Source: Candidatus Woesearchaeota archaeon (GTDB lineage Archaea > Nanobdellota > Nanobdellia > Woesearchaeales > GCA-2686295). Taken from it: DNA of 35,593 bases. Below the pieces are notes generated by a model. It had not been told where the DNA came from. It saw only the letters and a list, made by a program, of their open reading frames with translations, and did not search any database. The stretch's first letter is position 1. Each line of letters starts with the position of its first letter. The translations under genes and the position numbers were made by a program. The stretch covers positions 1-35,593 of the forward strand of contig NZBB01000012.1 of assembly GCA_002686295.1 (NCBI GenBank), given 5' to 3'. Below, piece by piece: positions 14,889 through 26,142 of the stretch.

Positions 14889-17555
14889 ATGGACGAGCAC
14901 AGAATTCATCTTAAAGAATTATATGATAGAACTAATTCTTCATTCAATGGTTTAAGCTCTGAAGAAGCAAGAAAGAGACTTGTAGAATATGGATCAAATA
15001 TAATAGAAGAAAAAAAATATGTTTCTCTAATAGTCAAGTATTTGAAAAACTTCACTAATTTCTTTGCAATCCTTTTAATGACTGGTTCGGTTCTTGCCTT
15101 AATAGCAGAATATCTTTCTCCAGGAGAAGGAAACTTATATATCGGCATAGCCCTATTTGTAGTTGTAATTCTTAATTCAACATTCACATTCATACAGGAA
15201 TATCAATCTGAGAAAATAATGCAGAGTTTCAAAAAGATGATGCCTACAAAGATACAGGTTTTGAGAGATGGAAGAAGAAAAGAAATACTGGCAGAAGAAC
15301 TTGTTCCTGGGGATATAATTTTTCTTTCTGAAGGTGACAAAGTGCCTGCGGATGCCAGACTAATTGAACATCACGCTTTGAAAGTTGATAATTCTTCCTT
15401 AACAGGTGAATCAGAACCACAACTAAGAAGTTTGGAATGTACTCATGATAATATTCTTGAATCTAGAAACATGATTTTCTCCGGAACACTTGTACAGACA
15501 GGGACAGGAACAGCAATAGTTTATAGTACAGGCATGAAAACTCAGATTGGTAGAATAGCTCAGCTAACAAAAGAAACTGAAGAAACAATCACTCCTATGA
15601 GAAAAGAAATAAACCATTTCATAAAAATAATTTCTTCAATTGCAATAATTCTTGGCGTAGCTTTTTTTTTCTTAAGTTTTGCATTAGGAAATAGGCTTAT
15701 GGGTAGTCTAATTTTTGCAATTGGAATAATAGTTGCGAATGTTCCTGAAGGATTATTACCAACTGTAACGCTGTCTTTGAGTATGGCTTCAAAAAAAATG
15801 GCAAAACATAATGCGCTCATAAAGAATCTCGAGTCTGTTGAAACTCTTGGTTCAACAACAGTTATCTGCACTGATAAAACAGGAACCATAACACAAAACA
15901 AAATGTTTGTTAATTCGTTATTTCTTAATATGACTGAATTAAACCACTCTGAAGATTTCTCAAACATAGATGGTTTTGACAAAGTTATAGGTGTTTCTGT
16001 TCTCTGTAATAATTCAAAACTTGACAAATTCAATGAAAAATACTTGGGTGATCCTACTGAAGGAGCCTTACTGATGTTCACAGAAGCTTATGCTGATATT
16101 GATAAACTGAACAAAGAACATCCTAGAATTGATGAACAGCCTTTTGATTCAAACACTAAATGCATGATTACTGCAAACAAATCAGGAAAAAAAACTTTTT
16201 CTTATCTTAAAGGTGCACCAGAAATTGTTTTGGAAAAATGTGATTATATATTATTAAACAATAAATTAGAGCATTTAGATCAAAACTTTAGAACAATCAT
16301 TAAACATCATTATGATAAAATGAGTTCTCGTGGAGAGAGGGTTTTAGCATTAGCTTTTAAGAATGAAGAAAAGAGTTTTATATTTGTTGGATTAGTAGGA
16401 ATAATAGATCCTCCAAGACCTGAAATAGCTGAAGCAATTTCTAAATGTAAAGAAGCAAGCATCAAAGTAATAATGGTTACAGGCGATTATAGTTTAACGG
16501 CAGAAGCTATTGCCAACATGGTTGGTATGTCCAATGATGGAAGTGTAAACGCAATTACTGGCTCAGAACTTAACAATATTTCTGATGAAGAGTTAAAAGA
16601 ATTATTGAAAAAACAGAATCTTGTTTTTGCCAGAACAACACCCATTCAAAAGCTCAGAATTGTGCAGACTCTGCAATCAAATGGAGAAGTTGTTGCAGTA
16701 ACGGGTGATGGAGTAAATGACGCACCTGCCTTGAAAAATGCAGACATAGGAATTTCTATGGGTCTTATGGGGACTGAAGTTGCTAAAGAAGCCAGCAACA
16801 TGGTTTTATTAGATGATAATTTCTCAACAATTGTGCATGCAGTAGAGCAGGGAAGAACAATTTATTCCAATATAAAAAAGTTCATAACTTATATTCTTAC
16901 AAGTAATGTTCCTCAAATACTTCCATTTATAGCATTTGTTTTACTAGGAATCCCTTTACCTTTGACTGTTGTTTTGATTCTGGCTATTGATTTAGGCACT
17001 GACTTGCTTCCAGCTCTTGGTTTGGGAAAAGAGAAAGCTGAATCTGATGTAATGAAATATCCTCCTCGTTCAAGGAAAGAAAGACTTCTTACAAGACAAC
17101 TTCTAATAGTTTCTTATGGCATAATAGGAGTTTTACAGGCTATTGCAGGATTCTTCTCTTATTTTGTAGTATTGTTTATGGGCGGATGGACTTTTGGTGA
17201 AAGTCTTGCTTTTAATGATCCTTTATATCTTAAAGCTGTAACTGCTTTCTTTGCCAGCATTGTCATATGCCAGATTCCTGATGTATTGGTTTGCCGTACC
17301 AGAAAACAATCTTTACTAAAACAGGGACTCTTCTCTAATGGTCTTGTATGGTTAGGTATATTTACTGAGTTATTATTGCTTAGTGTAATTGTTTTTGTTC
17401 CTTTCGCAAATAAGTTCTTTGGAACTCATAGCTTGTCTTTTTTTGAATTGTCTTTATCTCTGCCTTTTGCTTTGTTAATATTGCTGTTTGGTGAGTTTAG
17501 AAAATTCTTGATTAGAAAAGAAAATCTTTTTGTCAATAAATATTTGAAGTGGTAA
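14889..17555 (+). CDS. Cation-transporting P-type ATPase, P2C (Na+/K+-ATPase-like)
   Basis: TGES, VANVPEGLL, DKTGT, KGAPE and TGDGVND motifs. TM5 YILTSNVPQ, TM6 ILAIDLGTD, TM8 TAFFASIVICQIPD. GAGGTG SD. Confidence 0.93.
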   Translation: MDEHRIHLKELYDRTNSSFNGLSSEEARKRLVEYGSNIIEEKKYVSLIVKYLKNFTNFFAILLMTGSVLALIAEYLSPGEGNLYIGIALFVVVILNSTFTFIQEYQSEKIMQSFKKMMPTKIQVLRDGRRKEILAEELVPGDIIFLSEGDKVPADARLIEHHALKVDNSSLTGESEPQLRSLECTHDNILESRNMIFSGTLVQTGTGTAIVYSTGMKTQIGRIAQLTKETEETITPMRKEINHFIKIISSIAIILGVAFFFLSFALGNRLMGSLIFAIGIIVANVPEGLLPTVTLSLSMASKKMAKHNALIKNLESVETLGSTTVICTDKTGTITQNKMFVNSLFLNMTELNHSEDFSNIDGFDKVIGVSVLCNNSKLDKFNEKYLGDPTEGALLMFTEAYADIDKLNKEHPRIDEQPFDSNTKCMITANKSGKKTFSYLKGAPEIVLEKCDYILLNNKLEHLDQNFRTIIKHHYDKMSSRGERVLALAFKNEEKSFIFVGLVGIIDPPRPEIAEAISKCKEASIKVIMVTGDYSLTAEAIANMVGMSNDGSVNAITGSELNNISDEELKELLKKQNLVFARTTPIQKLRIVQTLQSNGEVVAVTGDGVNDAPALKNADIGISMGLMGTEVAKEASNMVLLDDNFSTIVHAVEQGRTIYSNIKKFITYILTSNVPQILPFIAFVLLGIPLPLTVVLILAIDLGTDLLPALGLGKEKAESDVMKYPPRSRKERLLTRQLLIVSYGIIGVLQAIAGFFSYFVVLFMGGWTFGESLAFNDPLYLKAVTAFFASIVICQIPDVLVCRTRKQSLLKQGLFSNGLVWLGIFTELLLLSVIVFVPFANKFFGTHSLSFFELSLSLPFALLILLFGEFRKFLIRKENLFVNKYLKW

Positions 17556-17582
17556 ACACAAAAACACCACTCAACAGTGATT

Positions 17583-17602
17583 AAAACCGAAATATTTATA
17601 TA
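17583..17602 (+). promoter_or_regulatory. BRE/TATA promoter (AAAACCGAAATA-TTTATATA) with no downstream ORF
   Basis: Purine-rich BRE-like element followed by TTTATATA at 17595-17602, in the convergent intergenic region between the ATPase and srp54. Confidence 0.65.
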
Positions 17603-17621
17603 ATAGTGGTTCCTACATAGT

Positions 17622-17696
17622 AGTAAATAGGGCTTGAACGAGCTATTCTTTTTACCAACACCTCATACACCCCTTAGCTCTTCACGCCCATTTATT
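17622..17696 (+). ncRNA. Candidate small hairpin RNA with C-rich anti-Shine-Dalgarno loop
   Basis: Stem TAAAT-A-GGGC-T-TGAA-C-GAGCTA / TAGCTC-TTCA-C-GCCC-ATTTA closes the loop TTCTTTTTACCAACACCTCATACACCCCT. It begins ~20-22 nt after the TATA box. Confidence 0.55.
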
Positions 17697-17697
17697 C

Positions 17698-19053
17698 TTA
17701 AAATTTAAAACCAGATTTACCAGAAAAACGTTTCATAAGCTTATCAATATTCTTTTCGCCACCACCTTTCATCATTTTAGCCATCTTCTTAGACTGACGA
17801 AACTGTTTTATTAAAGAACGAACATCACTAACAGATAAACCAGAACCTTTAGCAATTCTTTGAACATGAGCACCATCAAGGACATCAGGATTCTCAAGCT
17901 CTTCTTTAGTCATGCTATCCATCGCATAACGCCACTTTTCAAGCATACCTTCCTGTACCTTTAAAGCATCTTTTGGAATTTTCAATTGACCAAAACCAGG
18001 AATCATCTCTGTAAGTTTACTTAAAGAACCCATTTTTTTCATGGCTTTCATCTGTTCATAAAGATCTATGAGATTATGCTCTCCTTTCAAAAATTTCTTT
18101 CCAAGATCCTCTGCTTCATCCTCAGACATCGCATCTCTTGCTTTTTCAAGCAAAGCATCTAAATCGCCCATACCAAGAAGTCTGCCGACAAAACCTTCTG
18201 GTTTGAATTCCTCTAAATCAGAAATCTTCTCGCCTACACCTAAAAACTTAACCTGAGAACCAGTTACAGTACAAGCTATTAAAGCACCACCACCTTTAGC
18301 AGTACCATCAAGTTTAGAAACAACAACACCAGAAACACCACAAGAATCATGAAACGCTTCAGCTTGCTTCTCTGCAGCTTGACCTATATCAGCACTCAAA
18401 ACAAGCAAGTTCTCATTAGCCTTAACAACTTTATTAAGAGAATTAAGCTCTTTAATCAGCTCAGCACTCAAAGCATCACGCCCAGCACTATCAACAATAA
18501 CCAAATCATATTTATCCAGATTTTTTTTATTAGAATTATATATTTTAACAGGGTTCTTTTCTTTTTTATCGCCAAAAAAGTCAACTTTTGCTTTTTCGGC
18601 CAACTGCTTTAACTGGTCATAAGCTGCAGGCCTCCATGTATCTGTCTGAATAACAGCAACTTTATAACCTCTAGACTTGAAAAATCTCGCCAATTTACCT
18701 GAAAGAGTTGTCTTTCCACTTCCAAACAAACCAACCAGTAAAATCTTGAAAGGCTTTTTTTTACCAATAGAAATTTTAGAGCCTGGACCCCCAAGAAAAT
18801 CGACTAATTCATCATAAACAATCTTTATCAAAAGTTCTTTCTTTGAGATAGCTGCAGAGTCTATTTCCTTTAAAGCACGTTTTTTTATTTTCTTAGTTAA
18901 ATCAAAAACAAGTTGTACATTAACATCTGCTTGAAGAAGAGCTTTCTGAATATCTTTAACTAATTCATTTATCAGCTTTTCATCAACAAAAACTGCTTTA
19001 GTAATTTTCTTCAAAGTATTTTTCAAAGAACTTGAAAGCTTATCTAATACCAT
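17698..19053 (-). CDS. srp54: Signal recognition particle 54 kDa protein
   Basis: ALLQADVN, GLFGSGKTT, DTWRPAA, DSAGR, SKLDGTAKGGG motifs and a Met-rich M domain. Confidence 0.97.
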   Translation of the reverse strand: MVLDKLSSSLKNTLKKITKAVFVDEKLINELVKDIQKALLQADVNVQLVFDLTKKIKKRALKEIDSAAISKKELLIKIVYDELVDFLGGPGSKISIGKKKPFKILLVGLFGSGKTTLSGKLARFFKSRGYKVAVIQTDTWRPAAYDQLKQLAEKAKVDFFGDKKEKNPVKIYNSNKKNLDKYDLVIVDSAGRDALSAELIKELNSLNKVVKANENLLVLSADIGQAAEKQAEAFHDSCGVSGVVVSKLDGTAKGGGALIACTVTGSQVKFLGVGEKISDLEEFKPEGFVGRLLGMGDLDALLEKARDAMSEDEAEDLGKKFLKGEHNLIDLYEQMKAMKKMGSLSKLTEMIPGFGQLKIPKDALKVQEGMLEKWRYAMDSMTKEELENPDVLDGAHVQRIAKGSGLSVSDVRSLIKQFRQSKKMAKMMKGGGEKNIDKLMKRFSGKSGFKF

Positions 19054-23736: not shown

Positions 23737-26142
23737 CTATTTTTTCAAATTTTTTTCCTTCTCTGCAATCAAAAGAGTTGTTTTTATCACAGTATCAGGA
23801 TTTAATGAGATGCTCTGAATGCCTGCTTCAACTAAAAACTCTGCAAATTCAGGATAATCTGATGGTGCCTGACCACATATACCTATGTATTTTCCTTTTT
23901 TATTTGCCACATCTATAACTTTCCTTATCAATTTCTTCACAGATTCGTTTCTCTCATCATAAATATCACTAACTATTTCTGAATCTCTATCAAGACCGAG
24001 AGTTAATTGCGTTAAGTCATTACTACCTATTGAAAAACCGTCAAAAACATCTAAGAATTCATCTGCCTGTAAAACATTTGAAGGAATCTCACACATCCCA
24101 TAAACTTCAAGCCCATTTTCTTTCTGTTTTAGACCTGCTTCTTTCATTGTGGAAACTACTTTTTTTGCTTCTTTAATAGTTCTGCAGAAAGGAATCATGA
24201 CTTTCACATTTGTCAAACCAAATTCGTTTCTCACTTTAAGTATGGCCTTACATTCCAATTGAAATCCTTCCCTATATTCTTTTCTGTAAAAACGCGAAGC
24301 ACCCCTCCAACCAATCATAGGATTATCTTCTTTTGGCTCGTATAAATACCCTCCAATGAGATTTGCGTATTCATTGCTTTTGAAATCAGACATTCTTACA
24401 ATTACCGGATTAGGATAGAAAGCAGCAGCTATTTTCCCAATTCCTCTAGCCAGTTTATCTATGAAAAATCTTTTTTTATCATTATAATTATATGTTAAAT
24501 CAGATATTTTCTTTTTAAGGGCAGAATCTTTTATTTTTTCAAAGTTAATCAGTGCATTTGGATGAATTTGTATATGACTGTTTATTATGAATTCTTCTCT
24601 TGCAAGTCCAACTCCTTGACATGGTATGAATGAATCCTCAAAAGCTTGATCTGGCTGTGCAACATTCATCATTATCTTAGTTTTTGTTTCAGGCAAATTT
24701 TTAAGGTTATGCTCTTCTTTTTTGAATTTCAACAACCCTTTATAGACATACCCTATCTCTCCTTGAGAACAATCAATGGTTATTTTATCGCCATTTTTTA
24801 TTTGTTTTGTACCTTCATCAGTTCCAACAATGCAAGGTATGCCAAGCTCTCGACTAACAATTGCTGCATGACAGGTTCTTCCACCTCTGTTTGTTACTAT
24901 TGCAGATGCGATTTTCATTATTGGCTCCCAATCAGGATCAGTCATCTCTGTAACAAGAACTTCTCCTTTCTTGAATTCGTGAATTTTTTTAGGATCTTTT
25001 ATCACTCTTGCTTTTCCAAAACCTATTTTTTCACCTACAGAACTTCCTTCAACTATCACTGTTCCTTTCTCTTTCAAAACATATTTTATTATTTTAGTCA
25101 TATCCTTTTGTGAATGAACAGTCTCTGGTCTTGCTTGTACTATGAATAATTCACCAGTCAAACCATCTTTTGCCCATTCCATATCCATCGGTTTGAAATG
25201 ACCTGCTTTTTCTGAGTAATGATTCTCTATTATGCAAGCCCATTTTGCTAATTGCAGTACTTCATCTTCTGAAAGAACATATTTTTTTCTATCCTCTATA
25301 TCAACAGGAATATTTTTTATTAATTTTGAACCCTGAGAATCATAAACCATTTTCTTTGATTTTTCACCAACTTTTTTGCTTATGATTGGTTTAAATCCTA
25401 GCTTTAAAGTTGGTTTGAAAACATAATACTCGTCTGGATTAACACTTCCCTGCACTATGTTTTCTCCTAATCCATAAGAACCCGTTATGAAAGCAACTTC
25501 TTTAAATCCTGATTCCGTATCTATTGAGAACATCACTCCTGAACAAGCCTTATCTGAACGAACCATTTTCTGCACACCAATACTCAAACCAATAGAGAAA
25601 TGATCAAAATTTTTATCTTCACGATAACTTATAGCTCTATTTGTAAATAATGAAGCAAAGCATTTTTTACACGATTCTATTAACTGTGCTTCCCTAACAT
25701 TAAGATATGTTTCCTGCTGACCTGCAAAACTTGCATCCGGCAAGTCTTCTGCAGTTGCTGAACTTCTAACTGCAACATCCACTTGTTCACCATACTGTAT
25801 TTCCAAATGATGATAAGATTCTAGAATAACTTTTTTCAATTCTTCTGGTAACTCCGCTTTTAAAATTGTATGCCTAACTTTATATCCTCTTGTTTTAAGA
25901 TTCTCAATGCTTGAAGTATCAAGATCTGAAAGTATTTCTTTTATTCTGTCTTTTATGCCTGCTTTTTCCAGAAAATAATGATATGCCCTAGCAGTTACTA
26001 TAAAACCATTTGGTACTTTTACTCCTTTCTCTGACAAGTTTCTATACATCTCGCCAAGAGAAGCATTCTTACCACCAGCCAAACCAACATCCTCAATACC
26101 AACTTGATCAAACCAAAGAATAAAAGCTTCTTCTTTATTCAT
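23737..26142 (-). CDS. ppsA: Phosphoenolpyruvate synthase (pyruvate, water dikinase)
   Basis: GGKNASLGEM, AVRSSATAED, GGRTCHAAIVSRE (phospho-His) and FSIGSNDLTQ motifs. GAGGTG SD. Confidence 0.97.
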   Translation of the reverse strand: MNKEEAFILWFDQVGIEDVGLAGGKNASLGEMYRNLSEKGVKVPNGFIVTARAYHYFLEKAGIKDRIKEILSDLDTSSIENLKTRGYKVRHTILKAELPEELKKVILESYHHLEIQYGEQVDVAVRSSATAEDLPDASFAGQQETYLNVREAQLIESCKKCFASLFTNRAISYREDKNFDHFSIGLSIGVQKMVRSDKACSGVMFSIDTESGFKEVAFITGSYGLGENIVQGSVNPDEYYVFKPTLKLGFKPIISKKVGEKSKKMVYDSQGSKLIKNIPVDIEDRKKYVLSEDEVLQLAKWACIIENHYSEKAGHFKPMDMEWAKDGLTGELFIVQARPETVHSQKDMTKIIKYVLKEKGTVIVEGSSVGEKIGFGKARVIKDPKKIHEFKKGEVLVTEMTDPDWEPIMKIASAIVTNRGGRTCHAAIVSRELGIPCIVGTDEGTKQIKNGDKITIDCSQGEIGYVYKGLLKFKKEEHNLKNLPETKTKIMMNVAQPDQAFEDSFIPCQGVGLAREEFIINSHIQIHPNALINFEKIKDSALKKKISDLTYNYNDKKRFFIDKLARGIGKIAAAFYPNPVIVRMSDFKSNEYANLIGGYLYEPKEDNPMIGWRGASRFYRKEYREGFQLECKAILKVRNEFGLTNVKVMIPFCRTIKEAKKVVSTMKEAGLKQKENGLEVYGMCEIPSNVLQADEFLDVFDGFSIGSNDLTQLTLGLDRDSEIVSDIYDERNESVKKLIRKVIDVANKKGKYIGICGQAPSDYPEFAEFLVEAGIQSISLNPDTVIKTTLLIAEKEKNLKK

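Follow-up and report, generated by a model that had tools for sequence, protein, structure and literature searches.

What does a strong archaeal promoter transcribe when no gene follows it? The question is raised by a 35,593-nucleotide stretch of contig NZBB01000012.1 from a Candidatus Woesearchaeota archaeon (this whole stretch is the window referred to below), in which a TFB-recognition element and TATA box (BRE/TATA) lie within 142 intergenic bases (17556-17697) that hold no open reading frame (ORF) of at least 40 amino acids. The element sits between two convergent stops, those of a P-type cation ATPase ORF at 17555 and of srp54 at 17698. An earlier sequence-only reading of the locus had described this setting correctly and had proposed a small RNA (sRNA) of no described family that mimics the 3' end of 16S rRNA and acts on mRNAs led by a Shine-Dalgarno (SD) sequence. 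The marks of an independent sRNA gene (promoter, stem, C-rich loop, and T-tract) and the lack of a known family have held, whereas global mimicry of the 16S tail has not. The element is almost certainly a genuine, selected, structured RNA gene. That window positions 17625-17699 (plus strand) encode a lineage-specific sRNA of the Woesearchaeota that acts on a few start regions through pairing is, as judged from sequence, an evenly balanced proposition.

The RNA gene is recognized mainly by its conservation. A DNA search of 40 relatives found matches to the region of promoter and hairpin, about 70-75% identical, in eight of eight genomes of the same genus and two of two further genomes of the same family. 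Together with the window's own genome (G000; the relatives compared are labeled G001, G106, and so on) these make up the family set of 11 genomes. Promoter, stem, core, and T-tract are present in all 11, and the order of elements in the family alignment is palindrome, BRE/TATA, second box, stem, invariant core, 3' arm, and a run of T5-T9. The family stem has 12 bp, typically GGGCAUGAAGAG paired with CUCUUCAUGCCC, and most family genomes have a small inner hairpin that is absent from the window's copy. All 11 family sequences agree in alignment columns AACACCTCATACACC, and AACACCUCAUACACC(CC) is likewise invariant in the family alignment. The loop core, ACACCUCA-N(1-6)-CACCCC, hardly varies and is unpaired, and the 3' half of the loop likewise follows a nearly invariant, single-stranded pattern, ACACCUCA-N-CACCCCUU.

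The stem changes in sequence while its pairing is kept. RNAalifold, applied to a MAFFT alignment of the family, gave 11 pairs, five of them with compensatory changes, and stems that are wholly different in sequence between families still pair (GGGCAUGAAGAG versus GAGGUCGCAAGGGGA). In an alignment of 19 sequences, 92.6% of cells pair versus 76.1% after shuffling (0 of 500 shuffles match; slid controls give 37-66%) and both sides change in 10 of 11 stem pairs; this alignment was fitted to the covariance model, which favors structure, and the MAFFT/RNAalifold result is independent of it and points in the same direction. In the minimum free energy (MFE) fold of each of the 18 sequences that match the core pattern, 80% or more of the core is unpaired; the 19th has no pattern match. 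In the relatives the predicted RNA measures 63-98 nt, and over the whole set the stem has 10-21 bp and the loop 29-47 nt, with few or no G residues. In the window, the interrupted stem of about 20 bp and the 29-nt loop without G that the sequence-only reading had described are both present: the stem has 21 bp, and the plus strand folds at -21.9 kcal/mol compared with -7.6 +/- 2.3 for shuffled sequences (z -6.3; 0 of 200 shuffles as good). The covariance model built from the sRNA matches window positions 17623-17699 with 67 bits (E ~1e-11). Conservation with covariation among related genomes places the sRNA feature far beyond chance. Its parts, the neighboring genes, and the SD-like sites of the window are listed in the table.

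Table. Parts of the sRNA gene, its neighbors, and SD-like sites in the window (positions in the window; MFE, minimum free energy)
Feature	Position	Strand	Remark
P-type cation ATPase ORF, 888 aa	14889-17555	+	Upstream neighbor
Upstream palindromic box CACTCAACAGTG (yACT-N4-AGTr)	17568..17579	+	Candidate transcription factor site, 3 nt before BRE
BRE/TATA promoter AAAACCGAAATATTTATATA; TATA at 17595-17602	17583..17602	+	Conserved; presumed from the archaeal consensus
Second box CCTACATAGTAGTAA (ACT-N4-AGT again)	17612..17626	+	Between TATA box and predicted start
Predicted sRNA transcript, ~75 nt	17625..17699	+	Start predicted from TATA distance, end from T-rich tail
Hairpin, 21 bp, interrupted	17622-17696	+	7+4+4+6 pairs, one mismatch plus bulges
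5' arm of closing stem	17622..17645	+	MFE structure
Loop of 29 nt without G, UUCUUUUUACCAACACCUCAUACACCCCU	17646..17674	+	Read from sequence and fold
Conserved core ACACCTCATACACCCCTT, two anti-SD-like boxes (ACACCUC, ACACCCC)	17658..17675	+	Alignment
3' arm of closing stem	17675..17696	+	MFE structure
T-rich tail ATTTATTCTT, putative weak oligo-T terminator	17690..17699	+	Read from sequence; overlaps srp54 stop codon (opposite strand)
srp54	17698-19053	-	Convergent downstream neighbor
SD-like AGGGGTG	4781		Before 193-aa ORF
SD-like GAGGTG	14879		Before ATPase ATG at 14889
SD-like GAGGTGTT	26152		Before 801-aa PEP-utilizing enzyme
SD-like AGGTGTT	27555		Before OFOR beta subunit

The RNA does not fall into a known class. 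Rfam 15 gave no match at gathering thresholds in the whole window and nothing better than E ~4 at 17450-17800, where one weak match scored 16 bits (E 9) against a threshold of 50. ARAGORN found no tRNA or tmRNA gene in the window, and the GGGC...GCCCA portion spans just 60 nt. A full-text literature search found neither a description of this sRNA nor one of any sRNA of Woesearchaeota. The gene is thus previously undescribed, as the sequence-only reading had supposed. C/D box sRNAs contain a K-turn, with the C box (RUGAUGA) close to the 5' end and the D box (CUGA) close to the 3' end. This class was rejected, since the 11 aligned sequences all lack a CUGA behind the stem; only three of them have AUGAUG-like strings in the 5' flank, where these strings pair with the 3' flank, and the snoRNA matches in the Rfam scan were weak (E 9). 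H/ACA sRNAs are marked by an ACA box immediately 3' of the lower stem, by a two-sided pseudouridylation pocket, and by an upper stem with a K-turn or K-loop. This class was rejected as well, since C/U-rich sequence and T-tracts rather than ACA come after the stem and the internal loop is one-sided. The RNA of the archaeal signal recognition particle (SRP; RF01857) is also hairpin shaped, and the sRNA adjoins srp54. However, RF01857 matches other loci in all five genomes tested, including G000, whose separate canonical SRP RNA lies at G000:C6:39281-39549 (269 nt, 113.5 bits), and in five genomes the loop has no complementarity to SRP RNA beyond that of shuffled sequences.

Homologues occur outside the family as well. 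Those in G106, G015, G064, G054, G052, G044, and G089 are credible and those in G042 and G049 less certain. Beyond the family, the sRNA occurs in six or more other families of the order. The loop variants of these families retain CCUCA...ACCC, and several retain the promoter boxes. The exact pattern ACACCTCA-N(1-4)-CACCCCTT was found in nine of 401 sampled genomes of the order (reversed control, 0), a count that includes one assembly artifact (G169) and one genome, G379, that was dropped from further use since it has the core with neither stem nor promoter. At E <=0.05, covariance model R2 gave matches in 18 genomes of the order out of 151 sampled; 12 of the 18 matches were inspected, the six weaker ones (G050, G133, G137, G027, G148, and G085) being left out. 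Model matches in G156 and G107 were dropped for want of the core. Model R3, run on 151 sampled genomes of the class, matched G000 and two more genomes of its order, besides a weak match in one genome of another order. A scan for ACACCTCAYACACCCCTT in one genome per species (185,579 species) returned 38 stretches. Nine are archaeal (record titles Candidatus Woesearchaeota, Nanoarchaeota, Nanobdellati, or archaeon), which agrees with the placement among DPANN archaea made in the sequence-only reading. The other 29 are bacterial, which is close to the number that chance would give on the author's estimate. About half of these 29 belong to Bacteroidales (Alistipes, Rikenellaceae, and Paludibacteraceae), and the Bacteroidales matches may come from a conserved segment of a gene and not from chance. 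On the genomes sampled, the sRNA appears as a patchy speciality of one DPANN order, with fast-changing stems that limit its detection.

The G169 artifact concerns the end of a contig (G169:C101) that agrees exactly with window positions 17623-17676 but departs from the window thereafter and has no 3' arm; it was treated as an assembly join. The assembly graph of one DNA run forks at 17676, where a 5.8-kb contig has the 30-mer 17647-17676 and then differs. The alternative continuation of this fork is the same as the contig end binned into G169, a genome of another family. The fork reflects either a second organism with an identical loop sequence or a chimeric join.

A hairpin between two convergent stops, followed by a T-rich tract, could be a terminator or 3' untranslated region shared by the ATPase gene and srp54, with no function of its own. 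Within the family the element always lies behind the ATPase gene, and no T-run separates the ATPase stop from the hairpin, into which ATPase transcripts may therefore continue. Against this stand the conserved BRE/TATA and the two conserved boxes in front of the hairpin, an invariant loop over a covarying stem (which is unlike terminators), and the much better folding of the plus strand than of the minus strand (z -3.0 only for the latter). In addition, the neighbors vary. The gene before srp54 is absent in some family genomes and in others encodes a methyltransferase, a NUDIX protein, a TrmB-family protein, or a protein of unknown type, such that an extra gene separates the sRNA from srp54 in five of 11 family genomes. 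Farther away, the upstream gene in G015 encodes a radical-SAM enzyme and both neighbors differ in G106. The promoter and loop core are conserved while these neighbors vary, and the sRNA is therefore not a plain terminator or 3' untranslated region; that it is only this is very unlikely.

It is even less probable, and scarcely to be expected, that the element works as DNA or as a coding sequence (a protein-binding DNA site or a small peptide gene). A 24-codon frame beginning with TTG does run through the hairpin on the plus strand, and a frame of AUG-AGG-UGU-UGG lies on the minus strand, where it stops after four codons in the window. The lengths of loop and spacer vary among the relatives by non-multiples of three and would disrupt any frame, which marks the sRNA as non-coding, and the compensatory changes in the stem are a mark of RNA structure.

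The sRNA would be read from its own promoter and end at the oligo-T tract, T5-T9 being present at the tail position in most relatives. The BRE/TATA, which we take to be a promoter from its fit to the archaeal consensus, lies 22 nt upstream of the predicted start, and CGAAA-NN-TTTAWATA is kept across the 11-genome alignment as well as in G106, G015, G064, and G044. Two ACT-N4-AGT palindromes, one upstream of the BRE and one over the predicted start, are kept in several families. The upstream box, which has the form ACTACT-N4-AGTAGT just before the BRE in the family alignment, is at the same position in all 11 family genomes, G106, and G015; it is partial in G044, and in G064 only the box near the transcription start lies within the stretch read. 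The second box reads CTAYATAGTAGTAA in the family alignment, is present in G064 and G015, and has a related form, ACCACTGAATAGTAATA, in G044. Since two conserved palindromes bracket the promoter, transcription of the sRNA is probably controlled by a DNA-binding regulator that acts at these palindromes.

Six other sites in G000 have a CACT-N4-AGTG box (TACT in two cases) shortly upstream of a BRE/TATA-like stretch. The arrangement closely matches that of the sRNA promoter at four of the six, which lie on contigs C22, C43, and C48 (the last with two sites); the site on C29 is less clear, and no ORF lies behind the one on C11. A Pfam search of the ORFs behind the shared promoter boxes in G000 gave no match. 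The shared arrangement suggests that a single DNA-binding protein controls a small regulon, which may include the sRNA, and on this basis the sRNA would be expressed conditionally. The site of TrmB in Pyrococcus is TACT-N3-AGTA, to which the sRNA promoter box is similar. A gene for a TrmB-family regulator adjoins the sRNA, in convergent orientation, in G006 of the same genus (L019:2234-2953). TrmB-type regulation of the sRNA promoter is a lead only.

How might such an RNA act? The covarying stem clamps a loop rich in pyrimidines and A, leaving the core single-stranded. Most likely, the loop would pair with G-rich initiation regions (SD sequence and start codon) of a few mRNAs, and this pairing may block ribosome loading or alter mRNA stability. 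Conservation of sequence and structure, promoter and terminator motifs, and complementarity are observed; transcription, pairing in vivo, and the regulatory outcome are predicted from them.

The best functional lead, as predicted from complementarity, is the leader of a surface-protein gene, the putative target in G000. In a scan of 2479 candidate start regions of this genome, one outlier (G000:C25, minus strand, UUG start at 25846) forms a duplex of -33.9 kcal/mol with the loop, the next best reaching -25.0; with 40 shuffled loops the minima were -24.6 +/- 1.8 and the best was -29.0. The leader of about 60 nt reads CUAGGGGGU-cua-UAUGAGGUGU-guugauu-GAAGAG, and its partners in the loop are ACCCCUUAG, ACACCUCAUA, and UUCUUU, which give 9 + 10 + 6 bp over the SD sequence and the UUG start. 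The gene product has 1307 aa, an N-terminal hydrophobic segment resembling a signal peptide, and weak MG2, Wzt_C, and CopC-like matches. Its orthologues in G001, G003, and G004 are 57-62% identical, with leaders that are otherwise unalike. Two of these three leaders, all from the same genus, carry UAUGAGGUGU plus AGGGG: that of G001 has UUAGGGGUAUGAGGUGU directly before the AUG, and that of G003 has AGGGG, 23 nt, and UAUGAGGUGU. C25 was picked as the top of the scan, and the orthologues were checked afterwards, independently of this choice. The pattern AGGGG-N(0-25)-TGAGGTGT has just three non-self matches in the family set of 11 genomes, all three at the surface-protein gene (reversed control, 1), a statistic that is weakened by the relation of the three leaders by descent. 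Model R3 also matched, independently, the antisense of the C25 leader, without a stem. Mini upstream frames with AUG-AGG-UGU as their first codons occur in the G000:C25 leader (L094) and in G003:C35 (L095) and G003:C51 (L124). They fall exactly within the stretch complementary to the sRNA core, and their stop overlaps the main start codon (UUGA or UAAUG), as is typical of translational coupling.

Other results weigh against action by pairing, and they concern both this target and the search for others. The leader of G004 is reduced to GAGGUGU and a distant AAGGGUG, and a full-protein query did not find the surface-protein gene in G002 and G005-G008, genomes which keep the invariant loop. Therefore, the surface protein cannot explain the conservation of the core throughout the family, and another partner of the sRNA must exist. 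No RNA run was listed as containing the locus, and three sets of metatranscriptome contigs, from samples that contain this DNA, have nothing on 16800-18600. In the complete genome of G106, the best duplex (-32.7) is no outlier compared with the minima of 12 shuffles (-32.1 +/- 2.9). Finally, no genome-wide excess of start regions complementary to the loop was found in G000: with start regions taken from crude gene calls (stop-to-stop frames with all early start codons), 288, 122, and 65 of the 2479 reach -12, -14, and -16 kcal/mol or better with the real loop, and 224-394, 108-198, and 51-100 do so with six shuffled loops.

This last result also bears on the proposal of the sequence-only reading that the sRNA is a 16S 3'-end mimic, pairing with SD sequences generally and shifting the balance between SD-led and leaderless translation. 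The proposal draws on several likenesses. The CACCUC of the loop also forms the anti-SD core in the canonical 16S tail (GGAUCACCUCCU, read in two genomes of the same genus), it is single-stranded and 3' of a hairpin in both RNAs, each sRNA carries two anti-SD-like boxes, the promoter looks regulated, and the four SD-like sites of the window to which the loop had been matched are all present before the genes named. However, the identity stops after these six nucleotides (eight in G089), the A and CACCCC that follow and are conserved in the sRNA are not 16S bases, and a canonical 16S tail exists separately in the same-genus genomes. In G000 itself, the sole 16S rRNA gene found ends at a contig end (G000:C5:5-845, model positions 4-857), so that its own anti-SD tail is unreadable. 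GAGGTG stands in the SD position at just 43 sites, among about 780 genes, and the bases flanking it (A 51% and T 28% at -1; A 40% and T 40% at +1) do not extend the pairing towards the sRNA. Outside the sRNA gene, TATGAGGTGT is no commoner than its reversed control (26 versus 26 in 11 genomes). With neither an excess of well-pairing start regions nor an extension at the SD flanks, the global mimic is unsupported, and it is quite improbable. The six shared bases could still matter.

Of the 26 non-self TATGAGGTGT sites, 20 were examined, six having no locus. Nine sit 3-12 nt before the start of unrelated genes which, from the author's own reading of their N-termini, encode a ferredoxin-reductase-like, a radical-SAM-like, and a PEP-carboxylase-like protein, a ribosomal protein, NrdR (two sites), and the surface protein (three sites). 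Three sites lie in a conserved stretch with codon-like periodicity, read as antisense of a coding region. This stretch is common to G003, G004, and G010 (L103, L104, and L127, near position 1500) and has no Rfam match; the authors' translation of its opposite strand gives a T-P-H-T-F-R-H-S-F-A-T-H-like motif that resembles a tyrosine-recombinase box. Perfect complements of the sRNA outside its own gene run to at most 15 nt for the loop and 11 nt for the invariant core ACACCUCAUACACCCCUU.

The gene nrdR was proposed as a universal target since the antisense of the core reads SD plus AUG-AGG-UGU and NrdR of G106 begins M-R-C. The G106 gene starts GGGGGUGUGUGU-AUG-AGG-UGU, complementary to the G106 loop with a 3-nt bulge (-29.5), and is no outlier in the scan of that genome. 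Among nine family genomes, pairing exceeds the SD level only in G003 (-26.2) and G002 (-24.2), where UAUGAGGUGU is the SD sequence of nrdR, and stays at the SD level in the other seven; nrdR was rejected as a universal target, and this outcome, too, counts against a shared pairing partner. Palindromes of 16 bp (ACACTA-N4-TAGTGT) lie upstream of nrdR at most loci (family L164-L172; G106 L157:1470-1500); presumably these are NrdR boxes, as they resemble the consensus, which would mean autoregulation. An rRNA partner was rejected as well: pairing with the rRNA operon reaches at best -25.9 in G001 and -23.3 in G006, and 10 shuffled operons span -19.8 to -29.4.

A conserved loop may serve a protein instead of an mRNA. 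In that case ACACCUCA...CACCCC would be a binding site, and the RNA a sponge or part of a small ribonucleoprotein; a candidate partner would be a KH-type or other protein reading C-rich RNA, for example one that normally binds the 16S 3' tail. Archaeal KH proteins bind C-rich RNA. The invariance of the core over at least 15 nt in 11 genomes is equally expected of a protein-binding site, and two similar boxes with a spacer of 1-6 nt suit two protein contacts better than a continuous duplex. No mRNA target shared throughout the family was found, and the core of G089, AAUCACCUCAC, shares AUCACCUC with the 16S tail. On the other hand, no candidate protein gene travels with the RNA, whose neighbors vary, and one strong target is conserved among orthologues in the sub-clade of G000. 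Action through a protein is thus a minority possibility, though one of some weight. More widely, the sRNA may be an order-wide riboregulator with two copies of the anti-SD core in an open loop, induced by a dedicated transcription factor, that competes with the 30S subunit at SD-led leaders or titrates a factor binding the 16S tail and so reprograms translation and the cell surface. This wider scheme is improbable. It would include the leader of the giant surface-protein gene in the sub-lineage of G000, and thereby a change of the cell surface in host-dependent archaea.

Pairing of the loop with a few start regions has precedents among characterized sRNAs. One account describes how the C-rich motifs that RsaE/RoxS carries in duplicate bind SD sequences and stop initiation (PMC6158497). 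The likeness is that of an independent small gene with at least two unpaired C-rich boxes directed at G-rich SD regions. These boxes are also strongly conserved across a wide group in both cases. RoxS is expressed under a dedicated regulator, as the archaeal sRNA probably is. RsaE/RoxS belongs to the Firmicutes and has no homology in sequence or structure to the archaeal sRNA (Rfam gave no match), for which targets are predicted only; the archaeal gene has an archaeal promoter and an oligo-T terminator, and its boxes stand together in one loop on a single long stem. Within the Archaea, sRNA154 (loop 2) and sRNA41 of Methanosarcina mazei are intergenic sRNAs whose loops mask ribosome-binding sites, as described in a review (PMC5867862). 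They belong to another phylum, show no detectable homology, and have experimental targets, compared with the predicted ones here. The Woesearchaeota sRNA resembles RsaE/RoxS and sRNA154/sRNA41 in kind and is homologous to none of them.

The locus thus provides a new RNA family, with a working covariance model and a clear seed sequence, from very small, uncultivated marine archaea. It has a recognizable promoter that appears to be regulated and whose box also marks several unannotated genes, and it has one concrete candidate target, the 1307-aa secreted surface protein. If the conserved core is bound by a protein, its likeness to the 16S tail would point to ribosome biogenesis or initiation factors. 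If the sRNA acts by pairing, it would give a first point of entry into the post-transcriptional control of DPANN archaea, which might extend to surface proteins that are thought to matter in host attachment.

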